Positions 2,722-62,241 of a DNA stretch of 64,000 bases are shown here, piece after piece. The position numbers and the translations under genes were made by a program. The DNA lies in the NCBI GenBank assembly GCA_003645455.1, contig QNFE01000004.1:3406-67405 (forward strand). The letters are read 5' to 3'. Position 1 is the stretch's first letter, and every line of letters starts with the position of its first letter. Origin of the DNA: Gammaproteobacteria bacterium (lineage in GTDB: Bacteria > Pseudomonadota > Gammaproteobacteria > QNFE01). The notes beneath the pieces are model-generated. The model made no database searches and was not told the DNA's origin. It worked only from the letters and a program-made list of their open reading frames with translations.

Positions 2722-2985
2722 CTATTCAGTAAACATTGTATCCTTGTGCCAATTTATAGGATTATTTACAATGTATTCCGCTATTTCATTATATGATTTT
2801 TCATCTCGTATAATATGCTCCCAATAATTTCGTTGCCAAATTCGTTTATCAAACGGAGGCAAAATACCATTTTTAACCATTTTAATATATTCTATCGTAG
2901 TGTATCGTTTAAATGTTTGAACAACCGTGCCAATCGTAGGGGCGGATTCTATATCCGCCCGTTTATGGTGTTCCGCATTCGTCAA
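2722..2985 (-). pseudogene. Truncated REP-associated tyrosine transposase (RAYT / IS200-like Y1) C-terminal half, fused to a REP doublet
   Basis: The C-terminus QRNYWEHIIRDEKSYNEIAEYIVNNPINW matches the conserved RAYT/IS200 C-terminal block, and TIGTVVQTFKRYTT matches the preceding block. The N-terminal catalytic HuH/Tyr half is missing. The first ~17 codons (MTNAEHHKRADIESAPT) are read from the REP palindrome itself. Confidence 0.55.
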
Positions 2986-3036
2986 TTTTTTAAAATCCGT
3001 ATTATCGCGGGCGGATATGGAATCCGCCCCTACATC
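2927..3036. repeat. REP/BIME-like palindromic doublet, copy 1
   Basis: Two hairpin units GTAGGGGCGGATTC(T/C)ATATCCGCCCG (stem GGGCGGAT/ATCCGCCC) lie in inverted orientation around a ~50-nt spacer. Near-identical copies occur at 3888..4023 and 4738..4873. Confidence 0.75.
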
Positions 3037-3109
3037 AAATTGATTGTTTAAATAATTTTTATCTGAAACTATTTTTCTTCCTATCTCTTTTTCTGTGTTC
3101 TCTCGTGCA

Positions 3110-3856: not shown

Positions 3857-3887
3857 TTTTTTATTTTCTATTTGTTAAAAGCATTAT

Positions 3888-4023
3888 ATCATTGTGCCAA
3901 TCGTAGGGGCGGATTCCATATCCGCCCGTTTATGGTGTTCCGCATTCATCAATTTTTTAAAATCCGTATTGTTGCGGGCGGATATGGAATCCGCCCCTAC
4001 ATTTAATTTATCGTCGTTGGATA
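3888..4023. repeat. REP/BIME-like palindromic doublet, copy 2 (extended ~136 bp unit)
   Basis: ATCATTGTGCCAATCGTAGGGGCGGATTCCATATCCGCCCG...CGGGCGGATATGGAATCCGCCCCTACATTTAATTTATCGTCGTTGGAT. It is ~98% identical to copy 3. Confidence 0.8.
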
Positions 4024-4044
4024 ATTTTTGCCCCATTTTTATAG

Positions 4045-4623
4045 TTATAATTCTCCATTAAATGCTTGTTGCAAGATTGATTTTTGTAATTCTACTACAT
4101 TTTTTGTTTTTTGTTGATATATTTTTGTTAATTCTTGAGTTTGCTTTGATAATTTATCTAATTTTTTGACGATTTGTTGTTGTTCGGCAAGTGGCGGGAT
4201 TGGTATTTTTATTTGACCAATTTGATTTTTGTTGATTGAGTTAAATACGGCACCAGTGTTACCAATAATTTCTTTTTGGTGTTTTTTTAAAAAATAAAAA
4301 ATAAAATCTTTATCTACTGATTTTCTGACTCTGATTGAAGCTAAACCTCTGCCTATACATATTGTTTGGGTTGCAAAATTTACAGGTCCGACAGGTGCAC
4401 GAACAGACATCAAAATATCATTTATAATTGCTTTTTTGGTAATTTTTGTAGTCCATTTTGTAGGTTCGCCTATAAAATTTTTGGTAAATTCTTTTTTCCC
4501 TTGATAAAAAGGCATTCCATTTCCATCATTATTGTAGTATTTACTTTCAGGTGATTGTCCTGCAATTATCTCACAAATATCGCCGAGTTTTTTCTCTTGC
4601 CATTCGCCATTTTCAATTTTCAA
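4045..4623 (-). CDS. hsdS: Type I R-M specificity subunit HsdS, half-size (single target-recognition domain)
   Basis: It starts with the HsdS N-terminal motif (GEWQEKKLGDICEI). It has one TRD followed by the conserved HsdS helical block LPIPPLAEQQQIVKKLDKL..LQKSILQQAFNGEL. At 192 aa it is about half of a normal ~400 aa HsdS. The predicted start is TTG. Confidence 0.7.
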   Translation of the reverse strand: MKIENGEWQEKKLGDICEIIAGQSPESKYYNNDGNGMPFYQGKKEFTKNFIGEPTKWTTKITKKAIINDILMSVRAPVGPVNFATQTICIGRGLASIRVRKSVDKDFIFYFLKKHQKEIIGNTGAVFNSINKNQIGQIKIPIPPLAEQQQIVKKLDKLSKQTQELTKIYQQKTKNVVELQKSILQQAFNGEL

Positions 4624-4737
4624 TTTTCAATTCTCCATTGTTTTAAATGTTTTTTTATTTGCCAACCTTTTTTTAGTTGACGATTAGTTTTTGCATTTTC
4701 AATTTTCAACTCCGCCTCCGTTTGTTTTTAATTCGTT

Positions 4738-4873
4738 ATCATTGTGCCAATCGTAGGGGCGGATTCCATATCCGCCCGTTTATGGTGTTCCACATTCATC
4801 AATTTTTTAAAATCCGTATTATTGCGGGCGGATATGGAATCCGCCCCTACATTTAATTTATCGTCGTTGGATT
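4738..4873. repeat. REP/BIME-like palindromic doublet, copy 3
   Basis: Same ~136-bp unit as copy 2, lying between hsdM and hsdS. Confidence 0.8.
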
Positions 4874-4888
4874 ATTTGTTTTTGTTTT

Positions 4889-6346
4889 TCACAATAAACC
4901 TTTAATTTCTTTTAAAATATTTGCACTTTTTTGATCCAATTCTGCCATATTTTTTAATATTTCGGCAGGTTTTCGCAATGGTGTCTCTTGTGGTGCATTG
5001 GGGTTTTTGGCGGACAAATCATAGGTTTTTTGGTCTAATTTTTCAGTATTTATTATCCACGAATTTGGGCTTGTTTTTTTGGTTTTTTGCAATTTTAAAA
5101 ATTCGCTTAAATCATTAGTATTTAATGGATTGGTTTTGCCAAGGTTGCGCTCTAAATTCAACTGATAAAACCAAATATCTGTGGTGGGTTTGCCTTTTTT
5201 GAAAAACAACACGACTGTTTTTACCCCGGCCCCTGTGAATGTGCCAGACGGTAAATCCAAAATTGTATGCAAGTTGCATGAATTTAATAACTCGTGTCGC
5301 AAAGCGATTGAGGCATTATCAGTATTGCTTAAAAATGTATTTTTTATGACAACTCCTGCCTTGCCACCTGCTTTGAGGATTTTTATAAAATGTTGTAAAA
5401 AAAGCGAGGCGGTCTCGCCGGTTTTAATAGGGAAGTTTTGTTGCACCTCGGCTCGCTCTTTGCCGCCAAATGGTGGGTTTGCTAAAATTATATCATAACG
5501 GTCTTTTTGTTGGATATCGTTGATATTCTCTGACAGGGTATTGGTGTGGATAATGTTAGGGGCTGATATGCCGTGCAAAATCATATTCATAATGCCGATA
5601 ATATAAGCTAATGATTTTTTTTCTTTGCCGTAAAAAGTTTTTTGTTGTAATGTTGTGGTGTCACTTGTGGATAACCCACCTGTGGCACTATTTTTTAAAT
5701 AATCAAAAGCTTCAATTAAAAAACCTGCCGAACCTGCCGCTCCATCATAAACTGTGTTGCCTATTTTAGGGCTCACTACGCGGACGATGGTTTTTATCAA
5801 GGCTCGTGGTGTGTAATATTCACCACCATTGCGCCCGGCATTACCCATATTTTTTATTTTGCCCTCATATAGATGGCTCATTTCTAATTGTTCGGCATGG
5901 GTTTTAAAACGCAACTCATTAATAAGATTTATTATCTCTCGTAGGTTATAACCACTTTGAATTCTGTTTTTTAACTCGTTAAAAATTTGCCCTATTTTAT
6001 ATTCAAGGGTATTAGCAGAGCTGGCATTATTTTTGAATTTTTTAAAATATGGGTATAATTTGTTATTAACAAAATCTAATAAATCATCGCCTGTTAAAGA
6101 GTTGTGATCAATTTTACCATTTTTTAATTTGGGGGCAGCCCAGATTTGCCATTGAAACTCTTTTTTAATTATTTGTTGATATTCGGTATCAGACAATTCA
6201 GCAATTTTTATTTTATCTTGCTCCAAATCATCTAAGTATTTTAAAAACAAAACCCACGAGGTCTGCTCGATATAATCTAACTCGCTACTGCATCCTGCAT
6301 CTTTGTGCAAAATATCGTCAATATTTTTAAAAGTTTGGGTAAACAT
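4889..6346 (-). CDS. hsdM: Type I R-M N6-adenine DNA methyltransferase subunit HsdM
   Basis: Carries the N6-adenine MTase catalytic motif NPPFGG (gamma-class layout, as in HsdM). Size and operon context with hsdS/hsdR fit. Confidence 0.9.
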   Translation of the reverse strand: MFTQTFKNIDDILHKDAGCSSELDYIEQTSWVLFLKYLDDLEQDKIKIAELSDTEYQQIIKKEFQWQIWAAPKLKNGKIDHNSLTGDDLLDFVNNKLYPYFKKFKNNASSANTLEYKIGQIFNELKNRIQSGYNLREIINLINELRFKTHAEQLEMSHLYEGKIKNMGNAGRNGGEYYTPRALIKTIVRVVSPKIGNTVYDGAAGSAGFLIEAFDYLKNSATGGLSTSDTTTLQQKTFYGKEKKSLAYIIGIMNMILHGISAPNIIHTNTLSENINDIQQKDRYDIILANPPFGGKERAEVQQNFPIKTGETASLFLQHFIKILKAGGKAGVVIKNTFLSNTDNASIALRHELLNSCNLHTILDLPSGTFTGAGVKTVVLFFKKGKPTTDIWFYQLNLERNLGKTNPLNTNDLSEFLKLQKTKKTSPNSWIINTEKLDQKTYDLSAKNPNAPQETPLRKPAEILKNMAELDQKSANILKEIKGLL

Positions 6347-6368
6347 TTTTTATCCTATTGTTTGTATG

Positions 6369-6394
6369 CGGTCTGATATGGAATCAGCCCCTAC
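6369..6394. repeat. Half-unit of the REP-like element (degenerate)
   Basis: GGTCTGATATGGAATCAGCCCCTACA resembles the right arm of the REP unit. It lies between the hsdM start and the dnaE stop. Confidence 0.5.
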
Positions 6395-6408
6395 ATTTTT
6401 TGTGTTTT

Positions 6409-11484: not shown

Positions 11485-11781
11485 TTACAACTGGGTTATC
11501 TTGCCATATAGGTTTTTAGCCATGGTTTCAACCTTGGTATATTCGTTCTGTTGCAAAAGCCTCAACACTATGATCATTTTCGTTATCGACAATCTGCCCC
11601 TACATTTATGTTTTTTTGGTTTCACGACTCTGCCCCATATTGATTCGTATATTTTTGGACTGTGGCATGGGTTCTCATATCCCAAAGCTTTACCGACTTG
11701 ATTAGTTGTTAAATAAAAGTCATTGTTAGGTTGAATGACATCCATATTTTCGTCATTGAAGTTAGCTGTAAGTTTGTTCAT
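11485..11781 (-). CDS. Hypothetical protein (possible Bro-N/KilA-N fragment)
   Basis: The N-terminal LTTNQVGKALGYENP weakly resembles a Bro-N start. The rest of the protein is not recognisable. Confidence 0.3.
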   Translation of the reverse strand: MNKLTANFNDENMDVIQPNNDFYLTTNQVGKALGYENPCHSPKIYESIWGRVVKPKKHKCRGRLSITKMIIVLRLLQQNEYTKVETMAKNLYGKITQL

Positions 11782-12223: not shown

Positions 12224-12255
12224 GAGGCCTTTGCATAAAACCTGAAAAGGTCTCA
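12224..12255. repeat. Miniature (32 bp) derivative of MITE family 1 (TIR-TIR hairpin TGAGGCCTTTGCAT...TGAAAAGGTCTCA)
   Basis: Both ends match the family-1 terminal inverted repeat. It is flanked by ATATAT on both sides. Confidence 0.5.
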
Positions 12256-12371
12256 ATATATTCAATATTTGTTAAAAACTATCCTTAAATTATGAAATCT
12301 TGACAGAATTTGTAAGTGACGGTTAAAAATTTATGCTACAATAGTCATTTTTTGTTTTGGAGAGAACTTTT

Positions 12372-14315
12372 ATGAGTGCTAAAAAAATTTATTCCGTGCC
12401 ATCAAACATTGCTGATAATGCAATAATAAATGCTAAAAATTATGAATCTATGTATCAAGAATCGATAGATAATCCAAACAAATTTTGGACTCAACAGGCA
12501 GAAAAATTTATAGATTGGAGACAAAAATGGGATGACAAAAATGTTATGGAATCTGATTTTAACACAGGAGACATAAAATGGTTTGCAGGGGCAAAATTAA
12601 ATGTCTCTTATAATTGTTTGGATCGGCATCTGGCAACTCGTGGCAATCAAACCGCTTTAATCTGGGAATCAGATGATCCTAATGTAGATAAAAAAATAAC
12701 CTATAAAGAATTACACTCCCAGGTGTGTAAATTCGCCAATTCATTAAAAAAACGTGGAGTCAAAAAAGGCGATAGGGTCTGCATTTATATGCCGATGATT
12801 GTTGAAGCCTCGGTGGCTATGTTGGCATGCACAAGAATCGGTGCGGTGCACTCTGTCGTTTTTGGTGGTTTCTCGCCAGAGGCATTAAAAGGGCGGATTT
12901 TAGATTCTGACTGCCAAACGATAATTACCGCCGATGAGGGAGTTCGTGGTGGTAAAGCCGTGCCTTTGAAGGCTAATGTTGATAAAGCGGTTGAAGGTTG
13001 CCCTGATGTTAAAAATGTCATAGTCGTTAAAAGAACCGGTGGCAATGTCAATTGGAATAAAAAACACGATGTTTGGTTGCATGATTTATATAATGAGGTT
13101 GATGATAAATGTGAGCCTGTTTGGATGGATGCCGAAGATCCATTGTTTATTTTATATACCTCAGGTTCAACCGGCAAACCCAAAGGGGTGTTGCATACCA
13201 CAGGTGGTTATTTGTTGTTTGCCGCTATGACGCATAAATACTCTTTTGATTATAAAGACGGCGAGATTTATTGGTGCACAGCTGATGTCGGTTGGGTTAC
13301 CGGACATACTTATATAGTTTATGGTCCGTTGGCAAACGGGGCAATTTCTATGATGTTTGAGGGCATCCCCACTTATCCTGATGCTGGACGTTTTTGGCAA
13401 GTGGTTGAAAAACACAAGGTAAATATTTTTTACACGGCGCCGACTGCTTTGCGAGCTTTGATGGCAGTAGGTGATGATTTTGTTAAAAAACATGATCGTT
13501 CTTCTTTGCGGATTTTGGGGACTGTGGGCGAGCCGATAAATCCCGAAGCTTGGCAGTGGTATTATAATATCGTAGGTGATAAAAAATGTCCGATAGTTGA
13601 TACTTGGTGGCAAACAGAAACAGGCGGACATCTTATCACACCACTACCAGGAGCTACTGATTTAAAACCAGGTTCTGCCTCTAAACCATTTTTTGGCATA
13701 ATACCTGCGATAGTGGACGAACATGGCAATGAACTCAAAGGCGAGTGTGAGGGCAACCTTATTATCAAACAATCGTGGCCAGGGCAAATGCGAACTATAT
13801 ATGGCGATCACCAACGATTCAAAGAAACTTATTTTTCAACCTATCCTGGCAATTATTTTACAGGTGACGGATGCAAGCGTGATAAAGATGGTTACTATTG
13901 GATTACAGGCCGTGTTGATGATGTATTAAATGTATCAGGACACAGGCTTGGCACTGCTGAAATTGAATCATCATTAGTGTTGCATCCTGCGGTGGCAGAA
14001 TCTGCTATTGTTGGTTTTCCACATGACATAAAAGGACAAGGGATTTATGCTTATGTTACCTTGATGAGCGACATTGAGGCAACTGATGATTTAATTACAG
14101 AGTTAGTCAATCATGTCAGAACTGACATAGGTCCAATTGCCAAAATTGATATTCTGCAATGGGCGCCTGCTTTGCCAAAAACTCGCTCTGGTAAAATTAT
14201 GCGCCGTATTTTACGCAAAATAGCTGAAAATTCTTTGGATAGTATGGGTGATATTTCAACCTTGGCTGACCCATCTGTGGTGGATAGTTTAATCAATAAT
14301 CGCAAAAATAGATGA
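12372..14315 (+). CDS. acs: Acetyl-CoA synthetase
   Basis: ~648 aa AMP-forming ligase with the characteristic Acs N-terminus ([15 protein letters not shown]) and the motifs [12 protein letters not shown] and the C-terminal SGKIMRR. An RBS (GGAGA) lies 8 nt upstream of ATG 12372; the ORF-track start at 12357 is TTG. Confidence 0.9.
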
Positions 14316-15335: not shown

Positions 15336-15642
15336 ACTGCAAACTTTTCTTGATATACCCATAAATAGATATATATAATTGTTTGTTTATCTACTTTGCA
15401 CTTGATAAATAAAAAATAATAAAGTATAATTCGCAAATTATTATAATTATGAAACCTTTGTTTTAAAAAGTTACATTGTTACATATGTTTTATAAACTGT
15501 GCTTAAACATACAAAGATTTCACGATAAATTATAAAAAACAAATTTAATATTTTAATAAAGTTGTTCATTTTTTTTATAAAATTTTTTAAAAATGAGCAA
15601 CATTATTAGTATATTTATCTTATCATAAATGAGGACATAAAA

Positions 15643-24330: not shown

Positions 24331-25046
24331 ATAAATTAAACCGCCGAGAATTTATCAAAAAAACTACAAATACTGCTGCCATAAGTATTTTACCTGGTGT
24401 TTTTTTGCAAACGGTAAATGCTAAAGGTGCTGATGTTAAAAATCGTTGGGGGATGTTGATTGATACTCGTGGATGTGGTGACTGTAAAAATGAGTGCATA
24501 ACAGCCTGTCATAGCGAACATGCGGTAAAAAGCTTTGATCGCCCCCAAACAGACAGCCAATGGATAAGAAAAGTTACAGTTAAAAACAGAAAAACTTCCC
24601 ACACAATGGCGTTACCTATAATGTGTCAACATTGTGAAAAACCTGCTTGTGTTGATGTTTGTCCTACTGGTGCATCATTCAAACGTGTCGACGGCATAGT
24701 TTTGGTTGACCGGCATATTTGTATCGGTTGTCGTTACTGTATGATGGCATGCCCTTATAAAGCTCGTAATTTTGTTCATGAGAATCTTAGTGAACAAAAT
24801 ACCATATCTCCTCGTGGCAAAGGCACAGTGGAGGCTTGCACGATGTGTGTTCACAGAATAGACAAAGATGGAGCAAAAGCTAAAACTGCTTGTCAACAAG
24901 CATGCCCTAAAAATTCTATAATTTTTGGTGATTTAAATGATAAAAATAGTGGTATATCAAAAAAATTAAAAGCAATGGGTGCCAGACAAATTAGAGCAGA
25001 TTTAAACCTAAATCCTGCTGTATTATATCAAGGGTTGGACTTATGA
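24327..25046 (+). CDS. dsrO: DsrO (Tat-exported 4Fe-4S ferredoxin-like subunit)
   Basis: Twin-arginine-like NRREFIKK leader and multiple Cx2Cx2Cx3CP motifs. Its stop codon is supplied by the first 3 nt of a mini-MITE. Confidence 0.85.
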   Translation: MNKLNRREFIKKTTNTAAISILPGVFLQTVNAKGADVKNRWGMLIDTRGCGDCKNECITACHSEHAVKSFDRPQTDSQWIRKVTVKNRKTSHTMALPIMCQHCEKPACVDVCPTGASFKRVDGIVLVDRHICIGCRYCMMACPYKARNFVHENLSEQNTISPRGKGTVEACTMCVHRIDKDGAKAKTACQQACPKNSIIFGDLNDKNSGISKKLKAMGARQIRADLNLNPAVLYQGLDL

Positions 25047-25114
25047 AACCTTTGCATAATTCAATCACAATTTATAACAACAATAAAATGCACCTGAAAT
25101 ATGAAAAGGTCTCA
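25044..25114. repeat. Internally deleted (71 bp) copy of MITE family 1 exactly filling the dsrO-dsrP intergenic space
   Basis: TGAAACCTTTGCATAATTCAATCACAATTTATAACAA...AAATGCAC...TGAAAAGGTCTCA. The termini match the family-1 TIRs and the interior matches the full copies (CACAATTTATAAAACAAATA, AAATGCAC). It is flanked by TTA/TTA. Confidence 0.6.
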
Positions 25115-25116
25115 TT

Positions 25117-26331
25117 ATGAAAAAACAAACATCATTTAGTCAATTTTCTAATAATAGTTTTTTTTACTGGTCTTTGTTAGTTTTATTCGGTGGCATAATT
25201 TTGATAGGTTTGCTCGCAGTGCATCAAATGGAACATCACGGACATCATATCACAGGGATGAGTCAACAAATAGTCTGGGGTTTGCCTCATGTTTTTGCTA
25301 TATTTTTAATTGTCGCAGCCTCGGGTGCTTTAAATATCTCATCTATGTCATCGGTATTTAATCGAACTCATTATAAACCTCTATCTCGTTTGAGTGCCAT
25401 GTTATCAATTTGCCTGCTCGCAGGTGGTTTGGCAGTTTTAGTGCTTGATTTGGGTCGTCCCGATCGGCTAATTGTTGCGATGACTCATTATAATTTTAAA
25501 TCAATTTTTGCTTGGAATATAATTTTATATAACGGTTTTTTTGCTATTGTTTTTGTTTATATTTGGATGATGATGGAACAAAAAATGAATAAGTTTAGCA
25601 AATTAGCGGGCTTTTTTGCTTTTCTTTGGCGTCTGATATTAACCACAGGAACCGGCTCAATTTTTGGCTTTTTGTTTGCCAGAGAGGCATATGATGCGGC
25701 TATTATGGGGCCGATGTTTGTTATAATGTCTTTCTCGTTTGGTTTGGCATTTTTTATGTTGGTGATGGGATTGTTATATAAATTAGACGGCAGGCAAATT
25801 GGCGATTATGTTTTTAATAAACTTCGCAAATTACTGGGTGTATTTATCGCTGCTGTGCTTTATTTTGTCATCGTTAAACATTTGACAAATCTATATGCCG
25901 CCGAACACACAGATATGGAATATTTTATGCTTTTTGGTGACAACATCTACACTCAACTTTTTTGGTATGGGCAGGTGTTATTAGGTGGTTTATTGCCACT
26001 GATTATGCTCTATGGTCCGCTGTGTAAAAAATCTCGTTTGACAGGGTATTTGGCTGCTTTTCTGGTTGTATTAGGTGGCCTGATTCAGATTTATGTAATT
26101 GTTATCGGTGGACAAGCCTATCCTTTGGTGCTGTTCCCTGGGATGGAAGTTACCAGTTCCTTTTTTGACGGAACTATCAACTCATATATACCATCAAAAT
26201 ATGAAATTGCTCTGGGGGTTTCAGGTGTTGCTATCACTTTATTAGCCATAGTTTTTGCCAGTCGCATTTTACCAGTGGCAGCCGACAACCTATCAGATGA
26301 GTATGTTAATCCACACTTTAAGAAAAAATAA
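25117..26331 (+). CDS. dsrP: DsrP (NrfD/PsrC-like integral membrane quinone-interacting subunit)
   Basis: 404 aa with ~10 TM segments, last gene of the dsrMKJOP module. Confidence 0.85.
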   Translation: MKKQTSFSQFSNNSFFYWSLLVLFGGIILIGLLAVHQMEHHGHHITGMSQQIVWGLPHVFAIFLIVAASGALNISSMSSVFNRTHYKPLSRLSAMLSICLLAGGLAVLVLDLGRPDRLIVAMTHYNFKSIFAWNIILYNGFFAIVFVYIWMMMEQKMNKFSKLAGFFAFLWRLILTTGTGSIFGFLFAREAYDAAIMGPMFVIMSFSFGLAFFMLVMGLLYKLDGRQIGDYVFNKLRKLLGVFIAAVLYFVIVKHLTNLYAAEHTDMEYFMLFGDNIYTQLFWYGQVLLGGLLPLIMLYGPLCKKSRLTGYLAAFLVVLGGLIQIYVIVIGGQAYPLVLFPGMEVTSSFFDGTINSYIPSKYEIALGVSGVAITLLAIVFASRILPVAADNLSDEYVNPHFKKK

Positions 26332-26489: not shown

Positions 26490-26590
26490 AAGCACGGAAT
26501 GACGAGAAAGAACAAAGCACGGAATGACGAGAAAGAACAAAGCACGGAATGACGAGAAAGAACAAAGCACGGAATAATGAGAGTGAGAGG
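26490..26590. repeat. Tandem 25-mer array (AAGCACGGAATGACGAGAAAGAACA x3 + diverged partial copy)
   Basis: Three perfect contiguous copies then AAGCACGGAATAATGAGAGTGAGAGG. Between the two arrays lies a unique segment related to the left dsr-flank repeat. Confidence 0.8.
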
Positions 26591-30845: not shown

Positions 30846-31210
30846 AATTTAGATCTCCATTAAAGTAAAAAACTCCCATTATAAATCGTTTTTTTTTTGC
30901 AAATTTTTTTTGCTACAAAACAAGAAAAATCCAAACTCGGGGTTTGAAATTTTCTTGTTTTGTGTTATTTATAAGAAATTTTTGCTATCAAAGTTCTGTT
31001 TTAATTGTTGGTTATCACCTAAGCCACATGAGTGCCATCTGAGGCCAAAGTAAAGTTATCTATTTTGCCTGTGTGGAAAAAGTTGTCCTGTTTGGGCGTT
31101 TGACAATAATGGAGTGGCAATAACAGCAACAGCAGATGAATTAAGTTGGTTAGTTTCATCTTCATCATTGCTACAAGAATATAATACAACAAACAAGAAT
31201 AATGGTAAAA

Positions 31211-31371
31211 TGAGACCTTTGCATAATTCAAGCACAATTTATAAAACAAATAGATTGCATATGCTTATAGCAAAAATTCGTCAAAGGGCTTGCCATATTC
31301 CTCATTTTTGTTATAAAAATGCACTATTTTTTGCATTCTCTAAACAGCACTTGAATTATGCAAAGGTCTCA
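31211..31371. repeat. MITE family 1, full-length copy (161 bp; TIR TGAGACCTTTGCATAATTCAAGCAC)
   Basis: Terminal inverted repeats of ~24 bp. The internal sequence is ~90% identical to the copy at 60853..61014 in the same orientation and to 50901..51062 in inverted orientation. Confidence 0.85.
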
Positions 31372-31433
31372 AAATATATTTGATGAATTGCATAAAATCT
31401 CCTAATCAAAAAAAAACGATTGCCAATTATTTT

Positions 31434-32216
31434 TTAAAAATTGACTTTGCCTTTTTTCTTGAAAATAAATTTATTGTCCGATTCTTGTTTGGCGAAAAGA
31501 CGCAATATGCTAATTAATTGATTATCTAATTTTTGTTTAGGGTTGATTTTAATTGCTGTTTTGTATGTTTTTTTCAAGATATTAAAAACTGTCATACCTG
31601 AAATTTGAATCTGGTTGGAATCGCTGGTGTTATCTATTTTTATTTTTTCATCCTGTTGTGATGTGGTTATATTTATATGCACATCTCCCAGTTGTAATTT
31701 GCTGGGGGATTCAATATTAAGCCGTAAAATATCAATATTACCAGCAATATATTTTAAACGATTTTTTTCAAGTATTATTTTTTTAATAGAAAAATGAGCC
31801 TTACCAGCTGTTGTTATTAAATCTAAATTCCAGTTACTTAATAGGTTTTGCAAAGAATTTTCATAAGTTAAGTTCGTGATCTGGGTTTGTTTGTCTTTTA
31901 TTCCGATCTTTAATTTAATTTTGCCGTTGATATAATCTCCTGTAATATTAAAGCTTGTATTCAACAACAACAAATCACCTATGTTTAACGATGTTTTGAC
32001 GTTTTCAATTCTATGTTTGTTAAAAGTTACCGCCGAGAATGAGCCGTTGAATATTGTGCCAGATGGTTGTTCTGGGATGATATTTTTTGGTATGTTTACC
32101 ATTGACATAATTTGTGTCAGCGGAATAGCCGTTATTGAAAAATAAAGCAAAGAAACCATAAATACAAACAACAAAATAATAATTTTTTTCATAGGTTTCT
32201 CAAGGTCAATAGGCAA
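31434..32216 (-). CDS. gspN: Type II secretion system protein N (putative)
   Basis: Single N-terminal TM, ~260 aa, last gene after gspM in a gspIJKLMN series. Confidence 0.45.
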   Translation of the reverse strand: MPIDLEKPMKKIIILLFVFMVSLLYFSITAIPLTQIMSMVNIPKNIIPEQPSGTIFNGSFSAVTFNKHRIENVKTSLNIGDLLLLNTSFNITGDYINGKIKLKIGIKDKQTQITNLTYENSLQNLLSNWNLDLITTAGKAHFSIKKIILEKNRLKYIAGNIDILRLNIESPSKLQLGDVHINITTSQQDEKIKIDNTSDSNQIQISGMTVFNILKKTYKTAIKINPKQKLDNQLISILRLFAKQESDNKFIFKKKGKVNF

Positions 32217-36769: not shown

Positions 36770-36875
36770 GCCAAAAATTCAAAAAAACGACACTTGGACA
36801 CTTGATTTATACAAAGGTATCTTGATATTTTAAAATTAGACTATATAATATTTTTTTATTTTAGAGAAAATTATT

Positions 36876-37752: not shown

Positions 37753-37782
37753 CTTATATAGGGACCTTTGCACAGTCATAAT

Positions 37783-50900: not shown

Positions 50901-51062
50901 TGAGACCTTTGTATAAATCAAGTGCTGTTTAAAGAGGACAGAAAATAGTGCATTTTTATAGCAAAAATGAGGAATATGGTAATTCCCTTTGACGAATTTT
51001 TGCTATGAAAAGGTGCATTTTGTGTATTTTATAAATTGTGCTTGATTTATACAAAGATCTCA
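50901..51062. repeat. MITE family 1, full-length copy (162 bp), inverted internal orientation
   Basis: TGAGACCTTTGTATAAATCAAGTGC...GTGCTTGATTTATACAAAGATCTCA. It is flanked by ATTA/ATTA and ends 1 nt from the lon stop codon. Confidence 0.85.
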
Positions 51063-51063
51063 A

Positions 51064-53412
51064 TTAAACCAAAGCAATTTTAAAAACCTCTTCAATCCAC
51101 AACACGGGTTTTATTGTTATTTTTTGTAAAATAGTGACAGGAATTTCTTTTAAATCTTTTTCGTTTTCGGATGGAATAATAACTGTTTTGATGCCACCAC
51201 GATGGGCTGCGAGCAATTTTTCTTTTAAACCTCCGATAGGCAGAACTTCTCCTCGTAGAGTTATCTCGCCTGTCATAGCAACCGATGCTTTGACTTTTTT
51301 ATTTGCCAAAACTGATGCTAATGCTGTGCACATACCAACCCCTGCACTTGGCCCATCTTTGGGTGTGGCTCCCTCTGGCACATGAATATGAATATCTGTT
51401 TTTTTGTAATAGTCTTTTTTTAGTTTTAAATCATTATGTCTGTTGCGGACCACACTCATGGCAGTCTCAATAGATTCTTTCATAACGTCTCCCAGTGATC
51501 CAGTATATTTTATCTTACCATCACCTGCAAATGCCGCCGCCTCAATTGTAAGCAACTCACCACCTACTTGGGTCCATGCGAGCCCTGTAACTTGTCCTAT
51601 TTGGTTTTGTCTCGTAGCTTTACCATAGTTAAATTTATAGACTCCCAAATATTGTTCTAAATCATTAGGAGTTATCATAGTTTTAACTTCTTTTTTGTCA
51701 TCATCAGGGGCAAGGGCTATTTTTGTGACTACCTTGCGACAAACCTTAGCAATTTCTCTCTCTAAACCTCTTACTCCTGATTCACGAGTATATGTGCGGA
51801 CAATCTCTAAGATGGCAGATTTTGTAAAAAATATATCTTTTCTATCTAAGCCATTATTTTTTATTTGTTTAGGAATAAGGTATTTTTGGGCGATATTCGT
51901 TTTTTCATCCTCTGTGTAACCTGATATTTTTATAATCTCCATCCTGTCTAATAATGGCGGTGGAATATCAAGACTATTTGCTGTTGCCACAAACATTACA
52001 TCAGATAAATCATAATCAATCTCTAAATAATGATCGCCAAATGTGTTGTTTTGTTCTGGATCCAATACTTCTAACAAAGCTGAGCTAGGATCTCCTCTGA
52101 AATCTGTTGACATTTTGTCAATTTCATCCAATAAAAATAATGGATTGCTATTTTTAATTTTTGACAGATTAGTGATGATTTTGCCAGGCATTGATCCTAT
52201 GTAAGTTCTTCTATGTCCTCTGATTTGCGCCTCATCACGCACACCGCCGAGCGACATTCGGATGAATTTGCGCTTTGTGGCACGAGCGATTGAACGGGCA
52301 ATAGAAGTTTTGCCGACACCAGGTGGACCGACCAGACATAAAATAGGTCCTTTTAATTTTGCTACCTTGTTTTGCACAGCAAGATGTTCGGTGATTCTTG
52401 TTTTTACCTCATTCAATCCATAGTGATCTTTTTCTAATATGTTTTGTGCTTTGTTAAGGGTTTTTTCTAATCTGCTTTTTTTATCCCATGGCAGATCAAA
52501 AATAACATCAAGATAATTACGAATGACAGTCGCCTCGGAGCTCATAAGGTGCATTTTTTTGAGTTTTTTAAATTCTTTTTGACACTTTTCTTTGGCCTCG
52601 GAACTCATTTTAATTTTGGTAATTTTGCTTTCTATCTCTTTTAATTCTTCTTCATCATCGGCATCGTCATCTTTGTTGATCTCTTTTTTGAGGACTTTTA
52701 TTTGTTCGTTGACATAGTATTCTTTTTGGTTTTTGTCCATTTGTTTGCGAACTTTTGAATGAATTTTTTGTTCAATTTGCAAAACTTCCAATTCTTTTTC
52801 AAGATATTTTAAAATAATCTCCATTCTTGAGTCCAATTCAACGGTTTCTAAAATAGTTTGTTTGTCTGTTAGTTTTAATTTGATATGAGCCGATACCACA
52901 TCACACATAGCACCATAATTTGTCGTGTTTAGAACAGAGGATAAAATATCAGTGGGAATTTTACGATTGATTCTAACATATTGTTCAAAAACAGACAAAA
53001 CAGAACGAGACAATGCCTCAGATACTTTGTTATAACGATGTTTTTTGTCATATAGTGTTATATAATCTGCGACAAAATTTTGTGAATTATTTCTGATTTC
53101 AGTGGATACAGCACGATGCCTGCCCTCTATTAAAACCTTAATGGTGTTGTCAGGTAGTTTTACTAATTGTAAAATATTAGCAACTGTGCCGACCTTATAG
53201 AGATCTTTTAATTTGGGACTATTGGTTTTTGATGTTTTTTGGGTAGATAAAAAAATATTTTGATGGTTTTTGGTAGCAATATTTATAGCATTGATTGATT
53301 TTTTTCTGCCAATAAAAAGAGGAACCACCATCCCAGGGAATACCACCAAATCTCGCAAGGGCAATAAAGGAATAGTTTCTATTTTATGAATATCGTCTGT
53401 TGCAGTTGCCAT
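51064..53412 (-). CDS. lon: ATP-dependent Lon protease
   Basis: N-terminal LON domain, AAA+ Walker A GPPGVGKTS, and C-terminal protease PKDGPSAG; 782 aa. Confidence 0.95.
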   Translation of the reverse strand: MATATDDIHKIETIPLLPLRDLVVFPGMVVPLFIGRKKSINAINIATKNHQNIFLSTQKTSKTNSPKLKDLYKVGTVANILQLVKLPDNTIKVLIEGRHRAVSTEIRNNSQNFVADYITLYDKKHRYNKVSEALSRSVLSVFEQYVRINRKIPTDILSSVLNTTNYGAMCDVVSAHIKLKLTDKQTILETVELDSRMEIILKYLEKELEVLQIEQKIHSKVRKQMDKNQKEYYVNEQIKVLKKEINKDDDADDEEELKEIESKITKIKMSSEAKEKCQKEFKKLKKMHLMSSEATVIRNYLDVIFDLPWDKKSRLEKTLNKAQNILEKDHYGLNEVKTRITEHLAVQNKVAKLKGPILCLVGPPGVGKTSIARSIARATKRKFIRMSLGGVRDEAQIRGHRRTYIGSMPGKIITNLSKIKNSNPLFLLDEIDKMSTDFRGDPSSALLEVLDPEQNNTFGDHYLEIDYDLSDVMFVATANSLDIPPPLLDRMEIIKISGYTEDEKTNIAQKYLIPKQIKNNGLDRKDIFFTKSAILEIVRTYTRESGVRGLEREIAKVCRKVVTKIALAPDDDKKEVKTMITPNDLEQYLGVYKFNYGKATRQNQIGQVTGLAWTQVGGELLTIEAAAFAGDGKIKYTGSLGDVMKESIETAMSVVRNRHNDLKLKKDYYKKTDIHIHVPEGATPKDGPSAGVGMCTALASVLANKKVKASVAMTGEITLRGEVLPIGGLKEKLLAAHRGGIKTVIIPSENEKDLKEIPVTILQKITIKPVLWIEEVFKIALV

Positions 53413-53594: not shown

Positions 53595-54080
53595 ATGACA
53601 AAAAACCAAACCACACAAAAATTACTCCAAAAAAGATTAAAAAAGGCTTCCAGGCATTTTACAGCATTAAAAGAATATAAGTTCTTAATAGAGCAAATTT
53701 TAATCGATAAGAATATTTACCAAGTAGATGAATACAAACAATTACAACCAGCAGACAGGGCAATATTTGATGCCTATTTAAAAAGATTTTCATCATTGCA
53801 AGATTTTCTGGGGGCAAAAATATTCCCATTGTTGCTTGATATAGCTGGTATAAATAATAACTCATTGAGCGAGGTTTTGTTATATGTTGAAAAAGAGCAG
53901 ATAATTGACAGTCTAGATAGTTGGATTGAGTTGCGAGCGATAAGAAATGAGCTAGAACATGATTATCCAGAGATTATAAGAGAGGCATTAGAGAACTTAA
54001 AATATTGTGTTGATAGTTTTGATAGAATAACTTCTTATTATAAAAATAGTGTCAATTTTTCTAATAAATACATAAAATGA
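53595..54080 (+). CDS. HEPN-domain protein (HepT-like putative RNase toxin)
   Basis: Carries the Rx4-6H motif in ELRAIRNELEHDY. At 161 aa and all-helical, it is immediately followed by nucleotidyltransferase genes. Confidence 0.6.
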   Translation: MTKNQTTQKLLQKRLKKASRHFTALKEYKFLIEQILIDKNIYQVDEYKQLQPADRAIFDAYLKRFSSLQDFLGAKIFPLLLDIAGINNNSLSEVLLYVEKEQIIDSLDSWIELRAIRNELEHDYPEIIREALENLKYCVDSFDRITSYYKNSVNFSNKYIK

Positions 54081-54370
54081 GACTATCAACAAGAATTATA
54101 AGTATTTTAAAAAATAATATCCATACCAGTTTTGGTGATGTTGAGGTATATTTATTCGGTAGTCGTGTAGATGACAACAAATTAGGTGGGGATATTGATC
54201 TTGCCATTGATACTAATATAAATAACCAAAAATTTTTAAAAAATAAGATAAAATTTGACTGCCAGATGATAAGAGCAGGTTATGATTTAAAAGTTGATTT
54301 AGTAAAATACAATCACTGGGACGATTTATTAAACAGACAAATAAAAAACGATGCTATTAAATTATTTTAA
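54077..54370 (+). CDS. Minimal nucleotidyltransferase (MNT, Pol-beta superfamily) protein, copy 1
   Basis: LFGSRVDDNKLGGDIDLAID matches the GS-x9-13-DhD NTase motif. Its start overlaps the HEPN stop (ATGA). Confidence 0.7.
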   Translation: MRLSTRIISILKNNIHTSFGDVEVYLFGSRVDDNKLGGDIDLAIDTNINNQKFLKNKIKFDCQMIRAGYDLKVDLVKYNHWDDLLNRQIKNDAIKLF

Positions 54371-54376
54371 ATTAAA

Positions 54377-54664
54377 ATGAGATTATCAAAACAAGATATA
54401 AATATTATAAAAAATACAATTCTTGACAACATAAACGATGGCAAAATTACTCTATTCGGCAGCCGTGCAGATGACAATAGAAAAGGTGGCGATATTGATT
54501 TAATGGTGGAGACAAATAAAAATATTAGTTTTGCAACTGAGCTTAATATTTTAACAAAATTAGAATTAAATGGCATTGAGAGAAAAGTAGATCTATTGCT
54601 TAAAGCTCCAAATTCAACACCACACAATATTTATAAAAAAGCGAAAAAGGGAGTACTGTTATGA
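54377..54664 (+). CDS. Minimal nucleotidyltransferase (MNT) protein, copy 2 (paralogue of copy 1)
   Basis: LFGSRADDNRKGGDIDLMVE. The N-terminus MRLSKQDINIIKN parallels copy 1 MRLSTRIISILKN. Confidence 0.7.
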   Translation: MRLSKQDINIIKNTILDNINDGKITLFGSRADDNRKGGDIDLMVETNKNISFATELNILTKLELNGIERKVDLLLKAPNSTPHNIYKKAKKGVLL

Positions 54665-55539
54665 TACAGAAACCTCCAATAACAACTGGTAAACAAAATA
54701 TACAAGATAAAATTTATACTTTAAGAGATGTTCAGGTAATGTTAGACAGAGACTTAGCTGAACTTTACGGGACTAAATCTACAAGACTCAGAGAGCAGGT
54801 TAAAAGAAATATAAAAAAATTTCCACAAGATTTTATGTTTGAACTTACTGAACCTGAAACTAATTTGATGGTATCGCAAAATGCGATACCATCAAAACAG
54901 CATTTAGGAGGCAGTTTGCCACTTGTATTCACTGAGCAAGGTGTTTCTATGCTGGCCACTGTTTTAAAAAGTGATATTGCTACACAAATAAGCATAAAAA
55001 TTATGAGAGCTTTCGTCAATATGCGAAAATTCATTTTATCTAATGCAGATATGTTTATGAGATTTGAAAGAATAGAGCATCGCATATCTTTACATGATGA
55101 AAAGTTCAATAAATTATTTCAAGCTATAGAAAACAAAGAGACCAAACCAAAACAACATATATTCTATGATGGACAAATATTTGATGCTTATCTTTATGTC
55201 CGTGATATTATAAAGTCGGCTAAAAAATCTATAAAACTTATAGATAACTATATAGACGAGAGTATTTTAGTATTATTTACAAAAAGAAATGCAGATGTAG
55301 ATATGAAAATATATACAAAAACTATATCCAAGCAATTAGAATTAGACATAAAAAAATATAATGCCCAATATCCAAAGATTGAGGTAAAAAAATTTGCTTT
55401 ATCCCATGATAGATTTTTAATCATAGATGAAAAAAAGATATATCACTTCGGAGCAAGCTTAAAAGATCTTGGCAAAAAATGGTTTGCAGTTTCAAAAATG
55501 GACATAAACTCTTTTGAACTTTTAGAGAAGTTAAAATAG
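54661..55539 (+). CDS. ORF6N (KilA-N-like) domain protein
   Basis: The N-terminal LRDVQVMLDRDLAELYGTKSTRLREQVKRNIKKFPQDFMFELT matches the ORF6N DNA-binding domain. The C-terminal half is uncharacterised. Its start overlaps the MNT2 stop. Confidence 0.65.
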   Translation: MIQKPPITTGKQNIQDKIYTLRDVQVMLDRDLAELYGTKSTRLREQVKRNIKKFPQDFMFELTEPETNLMVSQNAIPSKQHLGGSLPLVFTEQGVSMLATVLKSDIATQISIKIMRAFVNMRKFILSNADMFMRFERIEHRISLHDEKFNKLFQAIENKETKPKQHIFYDGQIFDAYLYVRDIIKSAKKSIKLIDNYIDESILVLFTKRNADVDMKIYTKTISKQLELDIKKYNAQYPKIEVKKFALSHDRFLIIDEKKIYHFGASLKDLGKKWFAVSKMDINSFELLEKLK

Positions 55540-60381: not shown

Positions 60382-60850
60382 AAAACCTATAATAAAGCAA
60401 ACGGGCATAAAAAATGTTAATTTTGGTAAAAATGTAACTATTATTCAGCCAGTTAATTTATATGGTTGTGACATAGGAGATAACACTTTTGTAGGACCGT
60501 TTGTTGAAATTCAAAAAGATGTTAAAATTGGCAAAAATTGTAAAATCCAATCCCATTGTTTTATTTGTGAATTAGTGAATATCGGCGATAATACAGTCAT
60601 AGCTCATGGGGTAATGTTTATCAATGATTTGTTTAAAAATGGTCGCCCCGCAGGTGGTGATAAAAAATTATGGCAAAAAACTAAGATAGGTAATAATGTG
60701 TCAATCGGTTCAAATGCCACCATTTTGCCAGTTAATATTTGTGATAAGGTCGTAATCGGAGCAGGCTCGGTGGTCACCAAAAATATAACAGAATCTGCTG
60801 TTTATGCTGGCAACCCTGCCAAAAAAATAAAAAATTTTACTGATAGATAA
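60374..60850 (+). CDS. Left-handed beta-helix (hexapeptide-repeat) N-acetyltransferase (WbpD/WlbB-like)
   Basis: 158 aa with hexapeptide repeats (IGDNTVIAHGVMF, IGNNVSIGSNATI). Confidence 0.7.
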   Translation: MNEKPIIKQTGIKNVNFGKNVTIIQPVNLYGCDIGDNTFVGPFVEIQKDVKIGKNCKIQSHCFICELVNIGDNTVIAHGVMFINDLFKNGRPAGGDKKLWQKTKIGNNVSIGSNATILPVNICDKVVIGAGSVVTKNITESAVYAGNPAKKIKNFTDR

Positions 60851-60852
60851 AA

Positions 60853-61014
60853 TGAGACCTTTGCATAAATCAAGCACAATTTATAAAACAAATAGATTGC
60901 ATATGCTCATAGTAAAAATTCGTCAAAGGGAATTACCATATTCCTCATTTTTGCTATAAAAATGCACTATTTTCTGTCCTCTCTAAACAGCACTTGATTT
61001 ATGCAAAGGTCTCA
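60853..61014. repeat. MITE family 1, full-length copy (162 bp)
   Basis: TGAGACCTTTGCATAAATCAAGCAC...GTGCTTGATTTATGCAAAGGTCTCA. It begins 2 nt after the wbpD-like stop. Confidence 0.85.
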
Positions 61015-61086
61015 AAATAAAATGATAAATTTACTTATCATTTATGTTATAATACCTCAAAATGATAAACAAATTTATCAAAATCT

Positions 61087-62241
61087 ATGGAAAATATAAC
61101 TGTTTCAATTAAAAACAAACAAATCGGTGAGCTTTTTTATGATGAAAGTTTGCATCAATACGGTTTTAATTACAATAATGACGTGGCTCCTATATCATTG
61201 ACTATGCCATTTAAAAACTCAACCTATCTATGGCAAAATAAACTCCATCCAATTTTTGATATGCACATGCCAGAGGGTTATTTGTTTGAAGTATTTAAAA
61301 ACTATCTTAATAAAAAACACGGATTTATCAATGATTTTCTAATTTTTTCTTATTTATCGGCTAATATTCAAAGCAGATTGGAATTTAAAAGTGAATTTGC
61401 GGTTAAGAAATTTAAAAGTTTGGAGTTATCTTATATATTACAAAATGATGATAACGATACTTTTTTAAAACTTGTTAAAATGTTTCTATCTAAAAACTCT
61501 ATCTCTGGTATTCAACCTAAAACCATCGCAGTTGTAAAAGACAAAGAGGCTTTAAATTATCGTGAATATATTGTAAAAACATGGGGTGATGAATATCCGC
61601 AGTTGGCTCTTAACGAATATTTTTGCTTAAAAGCCGTGCAAGAATCAGGGGTTACTATCCCTCATATTCATCTATCAAATAACAACAAATTTTTACTGGT
61701 TGAAAGATTTAATTATGATAAAAAAAATAATAAATTTTTAGGTTTTGAAGAAGTTCTGGGTTTAATGGGTAAAAATTCTTCGCAGAAATATACGGGTAGT
61801 TATGAGCAGGTGGCAAAACTAATCTATAAAATAACAACCGATAAAATCGCAGATATGACAAATTTTTATAAAATAATGGTGATGAATTATTTACTTAAAA
61901 ATGGCGACGCTCATCTTAAAAATTTCGGCATAATTTATAATGATGATTTTTCCGTTATAAAACTTGCCCCAGCTTATGATATAGTTAATACCGTGGCATA
62001 TTTATATGACGATAAACCTGCTCTTACGATGTTTGGCAAAAAAGTCTGGTTCGGCAAAAAGGATTTATTAAAATTTGGCATCAAACATTGTTATTTATCC
62101 AAAACACAAGCTAATAGATGCTATCAAGATTGTTTTTTATCTTTGCAAGAAAACCACCAAAAATTAAAAAAATATATAAAAACAAATCCTGATTTTGTTA
62201 ATATAGGCACAAAAATGTTAGACAGTTGGAGGGTAGAATAG
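61087..62241 (+). CDS. HipA-like Ser/Thr kinase toxin
   Basis: The HipA N-terminal region (IGELFYDES...FDMHMPEGYLFE) and the kinase catalytic motif NGDAHLKNFGI (DxHxxN) are both present. Confidence 0.75.
   Translation: MENITVSIKNKQIGELFYDESLHQYGFNYNNDVAPISLTMPFKNSTYLWQNKLHPIFDMHMPEGYLFEVFKNYLNKKHGFINDFLIFSYLSANIQSRLEFKSEFAVKKFKSLELSYILQNDDNDTFLKLVKMFLSKNSISGIQPKTIAVVKDKEALNYREYIVKTWGDEYPQLALNEYFCLKAVQESGVTIPHIHLSNNNKFLLVERFNYDKKNNKFLGFEEVLGLMGKNSSQKYTGSYEQVAKLIYKITTDKIADMTNFYKIMVMNYLLKNGDAHLKNFGIIYNDDFSVIKLAPAYDIVNTVAYLYDDKPALTMFGKKVWFGKKDLLKFGIKHCYLSKTQANRCYQDCFLSLQENHQKLKKYIKTNPDFVNIGTKMLDSWRVE

Follow-up and report, generated by a model that had tools for sequence, protein, structure and literature searches.

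The 64-kb stretch of DNA analysed here (the window) carries several copies of a repeat of about 160 bp, and the question raised by this locus is whether the repeat is a mobile element and, if so, which transposase could have moved it. MITEs are non-coding DNA transposons that retain only the two ends recognised by a transposase, and the initial annotation of the window described the repeat as a non-autonomous element of this kind, mobilised in trans. This description is supported by the terminal inverted repeats (TIRs), the 5-bp target-site duplications (TSDs), the lack of coding capacity, the occupation of many unrelated intergenic sites and one empty site. The reading preferred here, to which a probability of about 0.88 may be given, is thus that of a non-autonomous MITE derived from an insertion sequence (IS) of the IS5 family, belonging to the ISAba23-like clade.

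The 25-nt terminal motif given in the initial annotation matches the 64-kb window seven times at three or fewer mismatches, the expectation from shuffled sequences being 0.00. Altogether, the window contains three full copies, three deletion derivatives and one solo end (Table 1), the full copies being 91-93% identical to each other in pairwise comparisons based on repeat finding and alignment. The arms of their TIRs pair over 21 nt, followed by imperfect pairing further in. The three full and two short copies recognised previously (the latter as 71 bp near 25044 and 32 bp near 12224) do exist, and two relics missing from that list—the mini copy at 15451 and the solo end at 36799—were recovered with a profile built from 23 family members. 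The solo end agrees with the terminus of the copy at 50902 in 20 of 20 nt. Another solo end, proposed near 37766 (37761-37775), has to be abandoned, since it carries 3 mismatches in 15 positions and about 2.5 such matches are expected by chance. The remnant at 12224 and the copy at 25045 have in common the atypical right end CCTGAAA..AGGTCTC, through which the two short copies are related to each other. Concerning the copy at 50902, it had been described as having its internal segment inverted; it is, in fact, the whole element that is reversed—the repeat containing it covers 169 nt that are 91% reverse-complementary to 60850-61018—and the reversal resembled an inverted interior because the element has inverted ends. 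Coding for a transposase was not detected by tblastn anywhere in the 64-kb window, in agreement with what had been stated before, and the open reading frames crossing the element, earlier taken for mere translations of it, continue into unrelated flanks.

Table 1 Copies and relics of the MITE in the window, with their flanks and gene neighbourhood
Feature	Position	Strand	Evidence	Flanks (left / right)	Neighbourhood
Full copy, 159 bp, subfamily a	31212-31370	+	nhmmer E=1e-48	AAAAT / AAAAT, exact (31207-31211 and 31371-31375)	63 nt downstream of the stop of a T2SS-N-like gene (31434-32216, -); 366 nt from the next gene
Full copy, 160 bp	60854-61013	+	Repeat finding, alignment, profile	AAAAT / AAAAT, exact (60849-60853 and 61014-61018)	Hexapeptide acyltransferase gene, its TAA stop (60848-60850) reaching into the left duplicate; hipA-like gene begins 73 nt downstream
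Full copy, 160 bp, whole element reversed	50902-51061	-	Repeat finding, alignment, profile	ATTAT / AATTA, imperfect	Between the lon stop (51064-51066, -) and the start (50895) of a GHMP-kinase (ispE-like) gene
Internal-deletion derivative, 69 bp, ends GAAACC...GGTCTC	25045-25113	+	E=4.5e-10	CTTAT / ATTAT	Between dsrO and dsrP
Micro-remnant, 31 bp, GAGGCCTTTGCATAAAACCTGAAAAGGTCTC	12224-12254	+	Alignment		Divergent intergenic region upstream of acs (12357)
Degenerate mini copy, 71 bp, GAAATCTTTGTATGTTTAAGCACAGTTTATAAAACA...AAAACAAAGGTTTC	15451-15521	-	nhmmer E=0.011, 13 blast matches; weak		About 120 nt upstream of dsrA
Solo terminal repeat GATACCTTTGTATAAATCAAGTG, without a partner end	36799-36821	-	Profile, motif search		

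In order to place the borders of the element, public metagenome contigs were scanned for GAGAYCTTTGYATAA, followed by 105-135 nt and then by TTATRCAAAGRTCTC, which gave more than 118 loci among the matches listed; the resulting set of 132 elements includes the three full window copies together with other loci, its metagenome part consisting of the matches listed. In 130 related elements, the base preceding GAGACC and the base following GGTCTC vary freely and therefore belong to the flank and not to the element. The true ends are thus GAGACC...GGTCTC, so that the repeat of ~162 bp defined earlier, with the ends TGAGACC...GGTCTCA, is retained except for its outer T and A. Both flanks are present in 126 of the elements, 67 of which (among the matches listed) are bordered by an exact 5-bp direct repeat, and 92 of the 126 by one with at most one mismatch, whereas shifting the right flank by 7 nt as a control left only one exact 5-bp repeat. 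No exact 6-bp repeat was seen among the 126 elements. The duplicated pentamers are A+T-rich, TATTA being the commonest. The duplications ATTA, TTA and ATATAT suggested for the window are at odds with this family rule of 5 bp, which is not fitted by 3-, 4- or 6-bp readings, nor by TA. Within the window itself, the exact duplication is found in two of the three full copies, while a clean 5-bp duplication is missing at three copies. The window copies are old, the full ones being 7-9% apart and accompanied by three deletion derivatives and one solo end, and the imperfect flanks fit this age. They are probably immobile relics by now, because no transposase is found nearby.

At least five MITE subfamilies of ~142-162 bp are delimited by one 15-nt terminus, that of the window elements, and occur on more than 118 metagenome contigs among the matches listed. 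Clustering by the interior, with the counts again referring to elements among the matches listed, resulted in subfamily b with 57 members (146-188 bp, most of them about 155-163 bp), subfamily c with 26 (157-161 bp), subfamily a—the window type—with 24 (159-162 bp, one of 183 bp with an insertion), subfamily d with seven (158-162 bp) and subfamily e with five (142-143 bp), as well as three minis of 100 bp, a pair of 157-bp elements and eight singletons (94-168 bp). Outside the window, subfamily a is represented by 21 copies on 19 other contigs among the matches listed, almost wholly from the JGI metagenome Ga0164315, which holds at least 20 copies. The subfamily-a copies share 73-96% identity with the copy at 60854, and a few variant modules are combined in them in mosaic fashion. 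Subfamilies b, c, d and e originate from other metagenomes and hosts than the window, and share with subfamily a the identical 15-nt terminus and the 5-bp duplication; taken together, the members of b, c and d span 146-188 bp, with 157-163 bp in the majority. Their interiors are mostly unalignable: a weak similarity connects a with c and d (z = 4.6-5.0), and none was found between a and either b or e. All subfamilies fold as long hairpins, and the family is widespread in marine sulfur-oxidising bacteria. As regards the genome-wide expansion presumed from the density of copies in the window, the support is indirect. It comes from the metagenome Ga0164315 mentioned above and from two independent SRR6478866 contigs in Logan, both belonging to this organism, that end inside copies, one of them (L001) in the copy at 50902, as is expected of a multi-copy repeat.

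The partner of the element was searched for by a scan for the terminus in 185,579 species-representative genomes, yielding 15 loci. It should be pointed out that the pattern used started with the flank T and misses ends with another flank base; subfamily a was not found in these genomes, a result that, with the pattern limited to T-flanked ends, is suggestive only. At 11 of the 15 loci, the motif forms the left terminus of a single IS, present in nine copies in the Candidatus Poriferihabitaceae MAG CBDFMY01 (L002-L010), in one copy in a Candidatus Spongiihabitans genome (L012) and in one truncated copy in a Nitrospinales MAG (L015). In L002, the IS spans 1265 bp (4161-5425) and its open reading frame of 331 aa scores 252.8 bits against the NCBIfam model NF033581 'IS5 family transposase' (cutoff 140), with the Pfam domains DUF772 (PF05598) and DDE_Tnp_1 (PF01609). 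Its left end, GAGACCTTTGCATAAATCAAGCC (L002-L010 and L012), is identical over 22 nt to the terminus of the copy at 60854, GAGACCTTTGCATAAATCAAGC. The right end of the IS, GAGACTTTTGCATAATCCATAATC, differs from the left one, and the MITE termini match the left one; the MITE therefore bears two left-type ends. An IS5-like parent had been among the candidates named at the beginning, and the end shared with an IS of that family lends it support. The other candidate, a parent of the IS630/Tc1-mariner type, is ruled out, the duplication being of 5 bp, variable and A+T-rich rather than TA, and the matching transposase being of the IS5 type.

The clade comprises IS copies of 1.24-1.27 kb coding for a DDE transposase of 331-340 aa, and those with intact flanks are bordered by the 5-bp duplications TAAGT, TTATT, ACATT and TTAAT. 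Homologues of the transposase at 74-84% amino acid identity are numerous. A copy of 1243 bp with the left end GAGACCTTTGCATAAATCAACCC and an exact TTATT duplication is present in the thioautotrophic gill symbiont of Bathymodiolus septemdierum (AP013042, L137), and several more copies occur in the 1.52-Mb genome CP125320. Five relatives of the IS all end in GAGACCTTTGCATAA-like cores, the 15-nt core being common to every MITE subfamily. The IS with the perfectly matching end comes from other hosts, of 44-48% G+C, while the closer low-G+C copies of the mussel symbiont differ from the MITE in one of 21 terminal positions. The autonomous IS was found neither in the window, which covers 64 kb of a 75-kb contig, nor in ~0.9 Mb of metagenome sequence adjoining copies elsewhere, where the transposase matches are N-terminal fragments only (~140-150 aa, three loci). 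Viral contigs gave no match to the paired-end pattern, and three IS-sized Logan contigs came from other samples. Judging from the sequences compared, the partner is likely to be an IS5-family IS of 1.24-1.27 kb from the ISAba23-like clade.

Several further observations concern this IS. It is nearly unchanged in the two different sponge-symbiont Gammaproteobacteria (CBDFMY01 and Ca. Spongiihabitans), and the truncated copy of the Nitrospinales MAG shares 77% amino acid identity over 147 residues, which suggests a recent horizontal spread of the IS within sponge microbiomes. Several copies of the Poriferihabitaceae MAG (L002, L003, L004, L006, L009 and L010) occupy the same near-palindromic site, ..GCATACAT TAAGT ATGTGACCGACCGAGCGACG.., which belongs to another repeated sequence and thus represents an IS hot-spot inside a second repeat family. 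In Ca. Spongiihabitans thiooxidans LFLB01 (L013 and L014), the same terminus is followed by a G+C-rich sequence (GAGACCTTTGCATAATTCAAGATTACCCGCCAATC...), and two right-end motifs lie close together in L014, where the arrangement may be nested or tandem. Finally, in CP125320.1 (L138, 1366-1388) a solo terminus, GAGACCTTTGCATAGTTCTTGCC, precedes a full IS copy by 53 nt, suggesting nested or abortive insertions at the IS ends.

With such a partner, we infer mobilisation in trans by this IS clade along the following lines. Both MITE ends having the left-end sequence of the IS, GAGACCTTTGCATAA(A/T)TCAAG, a transposase supplied in trans by an ISAba23-like IS would bind both of them, the element would be excised or copied by it, and the insertion would proceed through a cut staggered by 5 bp within A+T-rich pentamers, leaving the 5-bp duplication. 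In these genomes, intergenic regions and TAA stop codons would be especially rich in such pentamers, and selection would remove the insertions inside genes; this targeting, together with the selection, would be the cause of the copies being intergenic, often touching a stop codon and leaving the proteins intact.

The positions of the copies may be viewed in this light. All the window copies are intergenic, as had been noted earlier, and so are 129 of the 132 elements among the matches listed, with 53 tandem, 19 convergent and 15 divergent settings. The earlier statement that the copies lie within 0-2 nt of a stop codon holds for those at dsrO, lon and the hexapeptide-transferase gene, which abut the stops; it does not hold for the copy at 31212, located 63 nt past the stop. 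In the superfamily, among the matches listed, 20 of 110 stop-proximal sides are within 5 nt of a stop codon, as against 8 of 108 start-proximal sides. This proximity to stop codons would result from the A+T-rich target and the selection against disruptive insertions. Exact-protein look-ups for empty sites within the species gave either SRR6478866 contigs of the same organism ending in the repeat or nothing.

One insertion can be compared with an empty site from a different species. The 69-bp copy lies precisely where the stop of dsrO and the start of dsrP ancestrally overlapped as ATGA: in the closest available relative (L017, with DsrP 77% identical), the two genes overlap by the 4 nt ATGA (...GCGTTATGAAGAAT...). 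In the window, the dsrO stop TGA (25044-25046) has been rebuilt from the flank T and the first GA of the element, and the dsrP ATG follows at 25117, after the right flank. Both proteins, DsrO and DsrP, are unchanged by the insertion, the genes being now split by a hairpin-forming spacer. As to an effect on neighbouring genes, we infer that, with the ATGA overlap gone, the dsrO and dsrP genes of the sulfur-oxidation operon lost their translational coupling; individual insertions may matter for gene expression.

Some neighbourhoods deserve mentioning on their own. In a different organism (L107, 6061-8201), whose acs shares ~70% of its DNA sequence with that of the window, a subfamily-b MITE is situated ~300 nt upstream of the acs orthologue, the counterpart in the window (12224-14315) being the 31-bp relic ~100 nt upstream of acs; the two may represent independent insertions into the same A+T-rich promoter region. 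Genes of the defence or toxin type adjoin two of the MITE copies, i.e. two Polbeta/NTP_transf_2 nucleotidyltransferase open reading frames and an ORF6N-domain gene beside lon (53595-55539), and a HipA-like kinase downstream of the copy at 60854 (61087-62241).

The closeness to stop codons is also one of the features that would be expected if the element were primarily a structured RNA or a regulatory hairpin—a terminator, an mRNA stabiliser or a target of RNase III—with its transposon traits being secondary. The hairpin predicted for the copy at 31212 is indeed long and very stable (-53.8 kcal/mol, z=-8.5), z being about -8.5 on both strands. In subfamily a, the pairing is kept in 97.5% of cells, and two-sided, compensatory changes are seen in 8 pairs, a number reached by 5 of 500 shuffles and to be compared with 1-4 in slid controls. 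The remaining evidence does not go along with a function at the RNA level, including the terminator or mRNA-stabilising role once proposed for the TIR hairpins. A search of the whole window against Rfam at the gathering threshold matched only a tRNA, and for one copy searched by E-value the best hit was MIR2670, whose 22 bits fall short of the gathering score of 117; a known structured RNA, named at the outset as a finding that would speak against a MITE, was thus not encountered in Rfam. T-tract intrinsic terminators were not found around the two copies inspected. The copies occupy all kinds of intergenic context, divergent promoter regions included, and no orientation bias is apparent, the subfamily-a elements between tandem genes being three in sense and five in antisense. 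The 11 G-U cells are balanced by 14 mirror C-A cells, without strand bias, so that the symmetry belongs to the DNA or is, at any rate, not specific to one strand. Moreover, both the 5-bp duplications and the matching IS ends would be left unexplained. A primarily RNA-based element is accordingly judged improbable.

There is one feature that the simple decay of a transposon does not predict, namely the coordinated change of the two arms, observed in subfamily a at the terminal positions 11, 16 and 18 and in the central stem. It could reflect the propagation of subfamilies from master copies, arm-to-arm conversion or a constraint on the hairpin. In addition, the different subfamilies retain equal size and the long-hairpin fold despite their unalignable interiors. 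That the palindrome itself is under selection, either with the transposase acting on a hairpin or cruciform DNA intermediate or with the hairpin having been co-opted, is a speculative idea which we consider rather unlikely. A co-opted hairpin might serve, for example, as a spacer or an RBS-donating module between genes that once overlapped, like dsrO and dsrP, or it might supply an outward -35 box (TTGAWT). With regard to the latter, the only promoter-like match of a scan was weak, combining an outward TTGAWT -35 of the terminus with a -10 of the flank, and did not exceed chance expectation. At the right terminus (60994-61023 and 31351-31380), a -35-like TTGATT or TTGAAT is accompanied by a -10-like hexamer 18 nt off in the A+T-rich flank; this could form an outward hybrid promoter, the matches being no more frequent than in shuffles.

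Returning to the MITE derived from an IS5-family IS, it could be asked whether the short form has ever been mobile, since each copy might go back to a full-length IS of its own, the interior of which was deleted on the spot. Deletion derivatives do arise in the family (the 69-, 71-, 31-, 94- and 100-bp forms), and the IS of L015 is truncated. Nevertheless, the 24 copies of subfamily a have in common the same 115-nt interior, which is without similarity to that of the IS, and both their ends are of the left type, in contrast to the IS, the two ends of which differ; furthermore, independent deletions would not yield the same product of 159-161 bp with intact duplications at dozens of sites. Such an origin is therefore considered highly improbable. 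Hardly any credence can be given to the idea that the repeat is REP/BIME-like or a recombination site, served by a RAYT (Y1) transposase or by a site-specific recombinase and not by a DDE transposase, a view in line with a palindromic multi-copy intergenic repeat and with the presence of a second, G+C-rich hairpin repeat family in the same window, but contradicted by the 5-bp target duplications, which are the signature of staggered-cut DDE integration, by the termini identical over 15-22 nt to an IS5-family IS and by the fact that no Y1 or recombinase gene was seen linked to any copy in the window or at the other loci.

Among the named elements, the closest relative of the partner IS is ISAba23, the transposases of that family sharing 49% amino acid identity with that of the partner. 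ISAba23 has been published as an IS5-family element of 1249 bp, the inverted repeats of which measure 16 bp and the target duplication 5 bp (PMC4110982); the partner IS copies are of similar size (1243-1266 bp) and produce a duplication of the same length. The ends of ISAba23 read GGA(A/G)ACCTTTGCACGAA, and the cores are related, GGAGACCTTTGCACGAA in ISAba23 versus GAGACCTTTGCATAA in the partner IS. The latter is, however, a distinct unnamed lineage from sponge and mussel symbionts, and the window elements differ from ISAba23 in being ~160 bp long and non-coding, with an unrelated interior. A 12-nt core, GAGACCTTTGCA, is common to the window family, the Neisseria ATR and the Porphyromonas gingivalis BrickBuilt/MITEPgRS MITEs: it is contained in the terminus GAGACCTTTGCAAAA of ISNme1, the proposed parent of the ATR elements, and forms the terminus of BrickBuilt_4/5 (PMC4596501). 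Like the window family, ATR and BrickBuilt are non-autonomous, intergenic and IS5-associated; they occur in other hosts, their terminal sequence differs past position 12, and the likeness rests on the termini. BrickBuilt, in addition, carries a minisatellite and has irregular duplications (PMC4596501).

The Correia elements of Neisseria (CREE/NEMIS) are likewise hairpin-forming MITEs of ~100-160 bp that are intergenic and often located beside the ends of open reading frames. They have different 26-bp ends and a TA duplication, alter transcription and are cut by RNase III; to our knowledge, no transposase has been identified for them. In the literature searched, neither a published description of the window MITE family nor papers linking MITEs with SUP05 or Thioglobus were found, and the matches for Bathymodiolus transposons concern molluscs, not the bacterial symbionts. 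The kind of element, its terminal core and the likely mechanism are well known; it is the family itself that appears undescribed.

The window family leaves the understanding of how MITEs work unchanged, its value being of a more practical nature. It explains several spurious open reading frames and contig breaks in MAGs of sulfur-oxidising Gammaproteobacteria, and it provides annotators with a defined, maskable repeat with the ends GAGACCTTTGCATAA and a 5-bp duplication. Moreover, free-living bacteria and those associated with sponges and mussels are connected by a single IS5 clade, which makes the element a convenient marker of horizontal exchange among them.

Apart from the MITE, the window contains other repeats. 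A second, unrelated family consists of three copies of 141 nt (2920-3060, 3887-4027 and 4737-4877), which are 84-98% identical and spaced by 967 and 850 nt. In each of them, the G+C-rich hairpin GCGGGCGGATATGGAATCCGCCCC is followed by TACATTT, and the hairpin is also present at 6367-6398 and 11591-11621; the family looks like a REP-like or intergenic operon repeat. Just downstream of dsrP, between convergent genes, a nearly perfect tandem array (26490-26582) is formed by ~3.7 copies of the 25-nt unit AAGCACGGAATGACGAGAAAGAACA.
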